Of a stretch of 14,132 nucleotides of DNA, positions 7,244 through 9,659 are shown one piece after another. The stretch comes from a virus (Duplodnaviria; Heunggongvirae; Uroviricota; Caudoviricetes). A program made the translations under genes and the position numbers. The stretch lies in IMG/VR virus record IMGVR_UViG_3300026224_000012. The stretch is one strand, 5' to 3'. Position 1 is the first letter of the stretch. Every line of letters begins with the position of its first letter. The notes below the pieces were generated by a model. The model was not told the origin of the DNA and searched no databases. It saw only the letters and a list, made by a program, of their open reading frames with translations.

Positions 7244-8125
7244 ATGCTTAAAAAAGCGACAATTAATATAAAAACTGATGAGATAAATCTCTATCAAGGA
7301 GACTGTCTTGAGTTGCTAACCATGATGGACGATTCTTCTGTAGATCTCATCGTTACTTCACCACCGTATGCAGATCAACGAAAGAGGACTTATGGTGGCA
7401 TTGCCCCTGACAAGTATGTTGACTGGTTTTCACCTATAGCGGAGCAACTGCTACGGGTTCTTAAGCCTTCAGGCTCCTTTGTGCTTAACATTAAAGAGAA
7501 GGTAGTGAATGGCGAAAGACATACATATGTTTTAGAGCTTATTCTTAAAATGCGAGAGCTGGGTTGGCTGTGGACAGAAGAATATATCTGGCATAAGAAG
7601 AATTCATTCCCTGGTAAATGGCCTAATAGATTCAGAGATTCTTGGGAACGCTGTCTGCACTTTACAAAAAACAGAAAGTTTGCAATGTACCAAGAAGCGG
7701 TTATGGTTCCTGTGGGGGACTGGAAGAATGAGAGGCTAAAAAAATTAAGCTCGCGGGACATGATGAGGGATGAGTCGCGAGTTGGTAGTGGGTTCGGAAA
7801 GAACATTTCAAACTGGCAGGGAAGAGAAATGGCATACCCGACGAATGTGCTGCACATGGCAACTGAATGTGGTAACAAAGGCCACAGTGCAGCATTCCCC
7901 GAAGTTCTTCCTGAATGGTTTATTCGTTTGTTTACAACAGAAGGCGATGTTGTTTTGGATCCGTTTGCAGGCTCAGGCACTACACTTGTGGCGGCATCTC
8001 GCCTGTCCAGAAAGTCAGTAGGTTTTGAATTGCTTGATGAACACTGCCAAGTAGCTAAAGAACGACTTGGGCTGGAAAGAAAAAGGTTAACTAGCGTAGT
8101 AAGTTACAGCAAAAAAGCTGAATAG
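7244..8125 (+). CDS. Orphan beta-class DNA amino-methyltransferase (N4-cytosine or N6-adenine)
   Basis: ORF is open from 7202; ATG at 7244 has SD GGAG at 9-nt spacing. Motif IV DLIVTSPPYA precedes motif I VVLDPFAGSGTT, which is the beta-class order; SPPY suggests N4-cytosine. GC content is visibly lower than in flanking phage genes. Confidence 0.85.
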   Translation: MLKKATINIKTDEINLYQGDCLELLTMMDDSSVDLIVTSPPYADQRKRTYGGIAPDKYVDWFSPIAEQLLRVLKPSGSFVLNIKEKVVNGERHTYVLELILKMRELGWLWTEEYIWHKKNSFPGKWPNRFRDSWERCLHFTKNRKFAMYQEAVMVPVGDWKNERLKKLSSRDMMRDESRVGSGFGKNISNWQGREMAYPTNVLHMATECGNKGHSAAFPEVLPEWFIRLFTTEGDVVLDPFAGSGTTLVAASRLSRKSVGFELLDEHCQVAKERLGLERKRLTSVVSYSKKAE

Positions 8126-8177
8126 GTTTCTGGTTTATGGTAGTTTTCTCCTTGGTTAACCAAAGAAGGAAAATACA

Positions 8178-8459
8178 ATGTCAGGAACATGCATCATTGA
8201 AGGATGTGGTAGACATGCAGATAAAATTATCGGTGTGCGTCTGAGACGTGAACTGGATAATTTATCTGCAATTTGGGCCCACAATACTAACGCTTATTTG
8301 TGTGATGAACATGCAGCTATGGGATTTGATGTAGAAGTAACATTTACCCCTCGGGATGACAAGACCATTAGAACAGTTGTAAGCAACGGTGATGGTGATC
8401 CAGTTGTTCGACTGAAAGCAATCACCAAACCTGTCAACCCAGATGGAACGGAAGACTGA
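8178..8459 (+). CDS. Small zinc-ribbon-like hypothetical protein (93 aa)
   Basis: SD AAGGAAAA before the ATG. Carries CxxxxC...H (CIIEGCGRH) and CDEH motifs. AT-rich codon usage like the adjacent methyltransferase; followed directly by a terminator. Confidence 0.6.
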   Translation: MSGTCIIEGCGRHADKIIGVRLRRELDNLSAIWAHNTNAYLCDEHAAMGFDVEVTFTPRDDKTIRTVVSNGDGDPVVRLKAITKPVNPDGTED

Positions 8460-8477
8460 GGTTAGTATATTTATTAT

Positions 8478-8502
8478 AAAACCGCCTTCGGGCGGTTTTT
8501 TT
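8478..8502. terminator. Rho-independent terminator, potentially bidirectional
   Basis: AAAA-ACCGCC-TTCG-GGCGGT-TTTTTTT: a perfect 6-bp GC stem with a TTCG loop, flanked by an A-run and a T-run. Confidence 0.7.
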
Positions 8503-8528
8503 ATGCTTGCAAAAACTAAACTGCTGAG

Positions 8529-8806
8529 ATGGTAAAGATAATGGGAATCATAGAAATTATTGCTAGCGGTATTGTTGTGCTGGTTGCAGCCGCACTCAGC
8601 GTTTTTTACTGGCAATGTTCGTGGTTGTGGAAAAGTAGCAGAGAAAGCCAAACAGCAGCGCACCGAAGAGAACGCAGTGGCGATCGTTGCAGCAATATCT
8701 GGGCTTCACTGCCGGGGCTGGTTATGGTCAGTTTGAGCATAAAGTTGACAGCCTGATTGCAAAATTCAAAGAAGCTGGCGGAACGGTCAGAGAGATTGAG
8801 GTATGA
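8529..8806 (+). pseudogene. Chimeric ORF or remnant: unrelated N-terminal segment joined to the vestigial 3' end of a lambda R-type endolysin gene, with a 1-nt frameshift
   Basis: 8683-8806 closely matches the 3' end of lambda R as I recall it (RCSNIWASLPG, then after one missing base AGYGQFEHK.DSLIAKFKEAGGTVREI.V*), including the terminal ATGA overlap with Rz. 8529-8682 encodes an unrelated hydrophobic N-terminus in the same frame. The intact track ORF ends at 8756. Confidence 0.45.
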
Positions 8807-9246
8807 GCAGAGTCACCGCGATTATCTCCGTTCTGGTTATCTGCATCATCGTCTGCCTGTCATGGGCGGTTAATCATTACCGTGATAACGCCATCACCTA
8901 CAAAAAGCAGCGCGATAAGGCCGCATCCATTATCGCTGACATGCAGAAACGTCAAAGTAATGTAGCTGAACTCGATGCCAGATATACAAAGGAGCTTGCT
9001 GATGCTAACGCGACTATCGAAAGTCTTCGTGCTGATGTTTCTGCTGGTCGTAAGTGGCTGCACGTCAAAGCAGTCTGTCCGGACATGCATAAAACCACCG
9101 CCGCCTCCGGCGTGGATGATGCTTCCAGCCCCAGACTTACTGACACCGCTCAACGGGATTATTTCGTTCTCAGAGAGCGCATCGAAACCATAACTAACCA
9201 ATTGAATGGCCTGCAAGAGTATGTGAGATCACAGTGTTCATATTAG
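8803..9246 (+). CDS. Rz: i-spanin Rz (inner-membrane spanin subunit)
   Basis: N-terminus [33 protein letters not shown] is near-identical to lambda Rz as I recall it. ATGA overlap with the upstream frame. Confidence 0.9.
9002..9193 (+). CDS. Rz1: o-spanin Rz1 (outer-membrane lipoprotein), embedded in the +1 frame of Rz
   Basis: SD AAGGAG (8989-8994) 7 nt before the ATG at 9002. Lipobox LLVVSGC followed by the proline-rich KPPPPPAW...TPLNGII, matching lambda Rz1. Confidence 0.85.
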
Positions 9247-9284
9247 AAAAGTCTTATCATGAGATTTTTGTATATGGATGCATT

Positions 9285-9659
9285 ATGTCTCAATACGCGC
9301 GCGCCGCTTTAATCGCTTATCATTTGGTTGCTGATAGCTCAATGCCTCCTCGTGATGTATGGGATACAGCTGTCGCAGAGGTTACAGAAAGCGAATCGTC
9401 AAGAAAGAAGATATGCCCAAGGGCAACATTTCTCGCCCTAGCGGATAGCGGTTACCTCAAGAATGTAAAACCACTGCATGGGGAGAAAAAGGGCGGTAAG
9501 TTGTACCAAAGGGCAATTGAAGTTGCGAATCTGATTCTTGATTTACCCGGAATCAGTAAAGCTGAATTGGTTGATAAAACTGGTTACAAAGACAGGCAAG
9601 GGTCTTATGACCTGATTCTCGCTCTGTATCATCATGAGCAACTCCAGCGACCGGAATAA
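9285..9659 (+). CDS. Hypothetical protein (124 aa), AT-rich cargo gene
   Basis: ORF track 9234-9659; first ATG at 9285. No family recognised. Lower GC than the flanking structural genes. Confidence 0.6.
   Translation: MSQYARAALIAYHLVADSSMPPRDVWDTAVAEVTESESSRKKICPRATFLALADSGYLKNVKPLHGEKKGGKLYQRAIEVANLILDLPGISKAELVDKTGYKDRQGSYDLILALYHHEQLQRPE

Follow-up and report, generated by a model that had tools for sequence, protein, structure and literature searches.

"Novel joints" have reportedly been described in comparisons of the HK97 and HK022 genomes. The mechanisms that form mosaic joints have been the subject of experimental work (Martinsohn et al. 2008, PMC2327257; De Paepe et al. 2014, PMC3945230). 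Two types of lysis cassette are of concern here. In phage lambda (NC_001416), the endolysin gene R (lambdap75) occupies positions 45493-45969 and the start of the spanin gene Rz is located at 45966, inside the end of R. In HK639, mEp390, Fostie, Chris1, and an Enterobacter genome assembled from a metagenome (L020), an intact inner-membrane spanin (i-spanin) of 91 aa starts 7-8 nt past the stop codon of a GH19-type endolysin, and the sequence TGAGG provides both the endolysin stop and the Shine-Dalgarno sequence preceding the i-spanin ATG. The endolysin of these cassettes follows two holin genes, with a single holin gene annotated in Fostie. HK639 and mEp390 are listed as a spanin group (Kongari et al. 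2018, PMC6139136).

The window, that is, the whole stretch of 14,132 nt of a Caudoviricetes virus which was analyzed here (IMG/VR record IMGVR_UViG_3300026224_000012), contains remains of both types fused to each other (table 1). Region 8541-8806 is very probably a non-functional scar, produced by one illegitimate recombination event in the lysis module of a lambda-like prophage. The functional replacements of the damaged genes, that is, the GH19 endolysin and Rz/Rz1, are intact in the window. The former was also named as the working endolysin in the preliminary description, and its Pfam score agrees. The Rz gene shows 82-96% nucleotide identity to Rz of lambda, SfI, and mEp460, and Rz/Rz1 by all appearances constitutes a functional spanin pair which was brought in by the swap. 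Searches with tblastn for the rest of R, the C-terminal half of the i-spanin, and the o-spanin gave no match anywhere in the window.

Table 1. Coordinates of the scar, its component parts, and the neighboring genes of the lysis module in the window
Feature	Position	Strand	Native frame in ORF	Basis or remark
GH19-type endolysin, followed by TGAGG	6517..7131	+		Pfam GH19, 33 bits (cutoff 25.5); phrog_181, 8e-86
Inserted gene block ("moron"), endolysin stop to i-spanin start	7132..8506	+		Comparison with intact cassettes
N6/N4 DNA methyltransferase	7202-8125	+		Pfam PF01555, E=9e-44
93-aa Cys/His-containing ORF	8178-8459	+		No Pfam or PHROG match
Strong intrinsic terminator	8478-8506	+		Terminator scan
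Chimeric ORF, 75 aa from ATG 8529 or 71 aa from ATG 8541 (gene callers)	8529..8756	+
ORF part 1, spanin TM domain			yes
ORF part 2, 25 codons of spanin sequence			no
ORF part 3, 12 codons of R			yes
ORF part 4, 13 codons of R			no
i-spanin remnant segment 1, start codon and TM domain, codons 1-20/21	8541..8601	+	yes	tblastn; native frame in the 71-aa ORF
2-nt deletion site relative to the closest intact i-spanin	8601..8602	+		Position ambiguous by 1-2 nt beside the T6 run; 13/13 related loci alike
i-spanin remnant segment 2, codons 22-52, FFTGNVRGCGKVAEKAKQQRTEENAVAIVAA	8602..8690	+	no	Native frame is +1 to the ORF; the ORF reads nonsense YWQCSWLWKSSRESQTAAHRRERSG
Recombination joint CGATCGTTGC	8681..8690	+		Intact spanins GGCGACCGTTGC, lambda R TCGACCGTTGC
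Lambda-type R remnant, codons 118-129, DRCSNIWASLPG	8682..8716	+	yes	tblastn 12/12; in the frame of the 71-aa ORF by happenstance
1-nt deletion site, C of lambda GGGCGCTGG	8716..8717	+		Alignments; same state in all related contigs
Lambda-type R remnant, codons 130-158 and stop, third frame	8717..8806	+		tblastn 28/31; phrog_90
Intact lambda-type Rz (i-spanin, 147 aa)	8803..9246	+		Pfam PF03245 Phage_lysis, E=3.5e-39
Rz1 embedded in Rz, lipobox LVVSGC	~9002-9193	+		ORF list

The downstream half of the scar is derived from lambda-type R. Positions 8681-8806 align with lambda 45843-45969 (R codons 117-158 and the stop codon) with 95.5% identity, with 126 nt here in place of the final 127 nt of R. 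When 8440-8900 was compared by megablast with 50,697 phage records and 5,426 complete E. coli genomes, a match was found from 8681 onward only, to lambda 45843-46063, that is, the 3′ end of R and the 5′ end of Rz (E=1e-94). The upstream half of the query was covered by no record of these two collections. The assignment of the last ~120 nt before Rz to the 3′ end of R, as proposed in the preliminary description, is thus confirmed by alignment. The abrupt stop of the similarity was also seen correctly; its edge is located at 8681 instead of 8683, inside 10 nt that are common to the other parent.

The R tail is split over two frames. In tblastn, R residues 118-129 were found at 8682-8717 in the frame of the 75-aa ORF (12/12 identical) and residues 128-158 at 8711-8803 in another frame (28/31 identical), which ends in the ATGA overlap with Rz. 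The alignments place the lesion at a single base. Lambda reads CCGGGCGCTGG and the window CCGGGGCTGG, with one C absent between 8716 and 8717, as had already been noticed from the letters of the window. An uninterrupted R frame with a start codon is absent. R residues 1-117, which include the catalytic N-terminal region, had no tblastn match in the window. After repair of the frame, the 41-aa R tail matches phrog_90 (PHROGs, E=2e-11), the endolysin family of R-type, GH24-like lytic transglycosylases. The splitting of the tail over two frames and the absence of residues 1-117 both support the earlier suggestion that this is a non-functional 3′ remnant of R. Stretch 8717-8806 also holds the ribosome-binding region of Rz.

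The upstream half has a different origin. Its hydrophobic N-terminus was previously regarded as novel and unrelated, a view that does not hold: it represents the 5′ third of the i-spanin gene that belongs to the GH19 cassette itself. In detail, codons 1-52 of an HK639/mEp390-type inner-membrane spanin gene (phrog_1026) occupy 8541-8690. Sensitive blastn of 8440-8700 showed matches to the "Rz-like spanin" genes of HK639 and Fostie with 72-82% identity (best E=2e-8), the remnant also matches the mEp390 gene, and a family-alignment scan of species-representative genomes revealed 14 enterobacterial loci with a match to the spanin family. L020, with an i-spanin that reads MSIIEMILGGLGVLVAAALSGFVVGNIRGSGKTEAKAKQQRTEENAAATVAAAERK..., is the closest intact relative (75.6% nucleotide identity over 8541-8694, E=9e-25). 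The endolysin genes of the window and L020 show 75.2% identity, and because these two values are so similar, the stub of the spanin gene and the endolysin gene appear to belong to a single cassette. The homology to the spanin ends at codon 52, at the joint, and the full-length periplasmic domain (~91 aa) is absent. A cognate o-spanin was sought downstream, and neither the HK639 nor the mEp390 o-spanin has a match in the window.

Similarly to the R tail, the spanin remnant is divided between two frames. Residues 1-22 of the L020 i-spanin match 8541-8606 in the ORF frame with 68% identity, and residues 20-52 match in the +1 frame with 70% identity (tblastn). For the second of these segments (8602-8690), identity to the i-spanins of HK639, Fostie, and L020 is 59-70% in tblastn, and blastn showed 81-82% identity to phage spanin genes (E=2e-8). 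In the pairwise alignment, 2 nt are absent at 8601/8602, where L020 has CTCAGTGGTTTTGTT and the window CTCAGCG--TTTTTT; the sequence state without this lesion is CTCAGYGGTTTT. When the 2 nt are restored, the resulting 52-aa fragment matches phrog_1026 "Rz-like spanin" over residues 1-45 (PHROGs, E=5e-5). The 71-aa ORF as encoded has no spanin family match in PHROGs, and Pfam gave no significant match for the short fragments. Since the true spanin parent is unsampled and the best relative only ~76% identical, we infer where exactly within 8681-8690 the crossover fell and where exactly the 2 nt were lost. A +1 insertion in the T6 run, which the distant HK639 had suggested, was dropped in favor of the 2-nt deletion shown by the closer L020. 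L020 also revealed a subtype of the family that is longer by one residue.

The two halves meet in a 10-nt microhomology, CGAYCGTTGC, which is common to the spanin family and lambda R and is located at 8681-8690. This was determined from a five-way alignment of the window, the intact spanin genes L020, L025, and L027, and lambda R. In their wider context, the three intact spanins read ...GCAGCGGCGACCGTTGC(N)GC... and lambda R reads ...GCAATCGACCGTTGCAGCAATATC.... The window follows the spanins to 8680, shows CGATCGTTGC at 8681-8690, and follows R beyond this point, so that the sequence spanning the joint is GTGGCGATCGTTGCAGCAATATC. Similarity to lambda sets in at 8681. That to L027 stops precisely at 8690, and the spanin matches as a whole end at 8690-8694.

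The shared 10-mer is read in different codon phases in the spanin and in R, and thus the fusion was out of frame already at its formation. Being out of frame at once, the joint would never have given a hybrid protein on which selection could act. That the TM segment and the R segment are now in one frame is due only to the separate loss of 2 nt at 8601/8602, by which the spanin remnant was shifted. The in-frame fusion of the preliminary description is therefore apparent only: spanin and R frames differ at the joint, and 25 out-of-frame spanin codons lie between the two segments. The joint fits the formation of lambdoid mosaics by illegitimate or relaxed homologous recombination, the pathway itself not being readable from sequence.

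The module around the scar has the gene order of the HK639-type cassettes. Window 5863-7128 encodes Phage_holin_8, Phage_holin_3_7, and Glyco_hydro_19, and the scar spanin takes the same place in the order as the spanin of the intact cassettes, but with 1.4 kb inserted after the endolysin. The 3′ end of the endolysin gene aligns with HK639, Fostie, and L020 up to ...GTGTGAGG (7124-7131), and the similarity returns at the spanin ATG (8541). The inserted block sits exactly in the spacer of 7-8 nt of the intact cassettes, and the spanin ATG is cut off from its GAGG Shine-Dalgarno sequence. Among related contigs the gene block is nearly invariant (5 SNPs in 6600-8750).

In comparison with E. coli phage SKA5, 7002-10045 of the window is a replaced module, to either side of which the two sequences are 97% identical. 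Together with the switch from spanin to R at 8681-8690, this supports the earlier proposal that the site marks the recombination joint of a lysis-cassette swap. The replaced segment, 3 kb long, begins in the endolysin gene, of which it includes the last third, and continues through the methylase block, the scar, and Rz/Rz1 into a DUF6979 gene (9234-9659) and a membrane ORF of 67 aa. Since its left boundary (~7001) falls inside the endolysin gene, the endolysin is itself a chimera.

The 44 nt upstream of the spanin ATG (8497-8540) resemble the 3′ end of the GH19 endolysin gene, with "FMLAKTKLLRW*" compared to "FNLAKSVLV*". This likeness is better than that of shuffled sequences (p about 5e-4), yet 7% of random pieces of the window equal it, and BLAST gave no match. 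As an unproven suggestion, this stretch might be a third fossil, or a short duplication which arose from the insertion of the block.

The scar with both its lesions is identical in ~25 independent contigs, all belonging to one prophage lineage, with flanks that differ by ~1%. Region 8440-8900 is base-for-base the same in three IMG/VR contigs which elsewhere differ by up to 1.3%. In IMG/VR, the 29-mer of the junction is found in three contigs only, all identical copies, and two further 30-mers of the spanin remnant hit only the same three. One contig of the JGI metagenomes is identical across the scar, and it is the only copy of the junction there, also when the search tolerated degenerate positions. 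At least 21 Logan/ENA contigs code for exactly the 71-aa product, in each case preceded by the same holin-holin-GH19-methylase-ORF93 block. The occurrence of identical lesions in ~25 independent contigs excludes an assembly error; both lesions are real and fixed, and this includes the 1-nt deletion of the preliminary description. The distribution of the scar is narrow. The junction 29-mer has no match in 185,579 species-representative genomes, and the scar is absent from these, from 5,426 E. coli genomes, and from the phage collection (50,697 records). No copy lacking even one of the two deletions was present in the searched data, and in the absence of such intermediates the order of the two deletions cannot be established.

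Contigs that carry the scar differ in their Q/antiterminator modules and in their Rz alleles (145, 147, and 155 aa). For instance, the scar is identical in L010 and L015, which have Rz alleles of 145 and 155 aa, compared with 147 aa here, and L010 also has a different Q/antiterminator module. This is an indication that the block from the holins to the scar travels as a unit, with recombination continuing on both of its sides. The only variant in 8529-8806 among the aligned related contigs is 8753 C>A (in L014), which is synonymous in the ORF. With one substitution among these contigs, the sequence data cannot separate neutrality from constraint.

These results are consistent with the following course of events. 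The first parent would have been a GH19 cassette with its own i-spanin, in which the methyltransferase block already stood between endolysin and spanin, and the second a lambda-type S-R-Rz/Rz1 cassette. A crossover in the 10-nt identity CGACCGTTGC, shared by chance, would have joined i-spanin codon ~50 to R codon ~117. The product would have retained the GH19 endolysin and gained the lambda-type Rz/Rz1. Lost in the exchange would have been the entire o-spanin, the final 40 codons of the former i-spanin, and R codons 1-117. What remained of the two broken genes would have been dead stubs, 150 nt from the 5′ end of the spanin gene and 126 nt from the 3′ end of R. Decay would then have removed 2 nt from the spanin stub at 8601/8602 and 1 nt from the R stub at 8716/8717, and the 71/75-aa ORF would be an accidental read-through across the spanin and R pieces. 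A crossover farther downstream would have removed the translation initiation region of Rz. Only joints upstream of this region would give working spanins, and for this reason the R tail would survive; it probably persists as the carrier of the Rz initiation region.

A different reason for the retention of the R tail was given in the preliminary description, according to which the remnant keeps Rz translationally coupled to the frame upstream. The ATGA overlap on which this was based is present (Rz ATG at 8803, TGA at 8804-8806). Moreover, the Shine-Dalgarno sequence of Rz is weak in lambda and window alike (-3.6 kcal/mol, near the background mean of -2.7), and the Rz start lies within a predicted hairpin, GGAACGG...CCGUUCU, in both (window 8785-8830; lambda, locus L001, 806-851). 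From the weak Shine-Dalgarno sequence and the predicted hairpin, Rz of lambda may depend on ribosomes arriving from R. The geometry that such coupling requires, however, is lost here. The frame that ends in ATGA is open from 8636 only and contains neither ATG nor GTG. Its sole start codon is a TTG at 8687, which would give 39 codons (8687-8806) and has a Shine-Dalgarno match at background level (-2.9 kcal/mol versus -2.7 ± 2.5). The ORF that does possess an ATG terminates at 8756, which is 47 nt short of the Rz start codon and still ahead of the predicted hairpin, and the 1-nt deletion which breaks the geometry is fixed in every copy found. Preserved coupling into Rz is consequently not supported as far as frames and start signals can tell, and it is a very unlikely reason for the persistence of the R tail. 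The weak Rz Shine-Dalgarno sequence bears on the yield of Rz once the upstream R frame is dead.

The ORF across the scar is most likely not a gene. It does end at 8756 and does open with a hydrophobic stretch (~22 residues), as originally described. Nevertheless, it might be active, either as a TM-anchored peptide in lysis timing or as an uORF which brings ribosomes near the weak and partly structured Rz start; we regard such activity as very unlikely. In the first case, it would be an example of gene birth from a recombination scar, and in the second, its translation would substitute for the lost R-Rz coupling.

The claim that the 71-aa ORF encodes a small membrane protein with a new function which arose from the scar, such as one that modulates holin or spanin action, is hardly probable. 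Its product would have an N-terminal TM helix, its ATG has a moderate Shine-Dalgarno match (-5.3 kcal/mol), and it is placed within the late lysis operon. The block inserted upstream, though, parts this ATG from the original GAGG Shine-Dalgarno sequence of the cassette, and half of the residues stem from other genes that are read in the wrong frame. The deletions total 3 nt, and thereby both ends of the ORF, 20 codons at its beginning and 12 at its end, stay in the frame of the original hybrid and the 71-codon ORF remains open. This could hint at selection on the ORF, but little weight is given to it because a pair of frameshifting indels will compensate each other by chance in roughly half of all cases. 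At least 21 contigs with diverged flanks encode an identical product, an identity which reflects the recent common origin of the 6600-8750 block (5 SNPs in 2.1 kb). The 71-aa form is on record and an exact look-up gave no record of the 75-aa product from ATG 8529. No diverged homologue of the ORF was found among the 5.8 billion proteins searched, the repaired spanin fragment retrieved from the same proteins the ORF itself only, and there is no family match beyond the 12 residues derived from R. Instead of conservation of an intact gene in many phages, the identical copies come from one lineage only.

The weakest alternative, in which the missing base results from faulty sequencing or assembly and a TM-anchored fusion with the C-terminus of R is the real gene, could appeal to the short G/C run (CCGGGG), an error-prone context on some platforms, but it is effectively refuted by the same state in three IMG/VR contigs, one JGI contig, and at least 21 contigs assembled from independent sequencing runs and by the fact that, even with the C restored, the product would be without R residues 1-117 and their catalytic region. 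Programmed frameshifting at CCGGGGC was also rejected: the site does not contain a slippery heptamer of the form X XXY YYZ, and any catalytic domain would be missing from the product.

The interpretation of the region as a scar has a practical consequence for annotation: the 71-aa ORF, which gene callers list as a protein, should be marked as a mosaic pseudogene. As a case of lysis-cassette reshuffling in lambdoid phages, the locus is of textbook quality: both parental genes can be named, the crossover is confined to 10 nt that are identical by chance, and what is left of each gene remains legible, including its later decay.

Compared with the i-spanins of HK639 (gp70) and mEp390 (gp51), the remnant shares the N-terminal TM domain, the motif G-N/H-x-R-G...K-A-x-QQRTEEN-A, and the position downstream of a holin-holin-GH19 endolysin cassette. 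The starts of these proteins are MGIIE in the window, MSIIE in L020, and MGFE/MGLE in HK639 and mEp390. Unlike the i-spanins of this group, only codons 1-52 of ~91 are left, split over two frames by the 2-nt deletion, and unlike the respective loci, a methyltransferase block of 1.4 kb stands between the endolysin stop with its Shine-Dalgarno sequence and the spanin ATG. With lambda R, the scar shares 8681-8806 including the overlap with the Rz start. In contrast to R, the first 117 codons are gone, the tail is in two frames, and, apart from the TTG at 8687, the frame ending in ATGA has no start codon and no ribosome-binding site.

The scar as a whole is an ordinary phage mosaic scar, unusually well resolved, and does not constitute a new kind of system. 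As in the mosaic joints of other lambdoid phages, the sequence switches abruptly from one parent to another, unrelated one at a very short identity inside coding sequences, and the flanking functional genes are kept. There is no difference in kind from these joints; what distinguishes the present one is that both parental families can be named, that the joint is located to 10 nt, and that both stubs are still recognizable, each with its own later frameshift.
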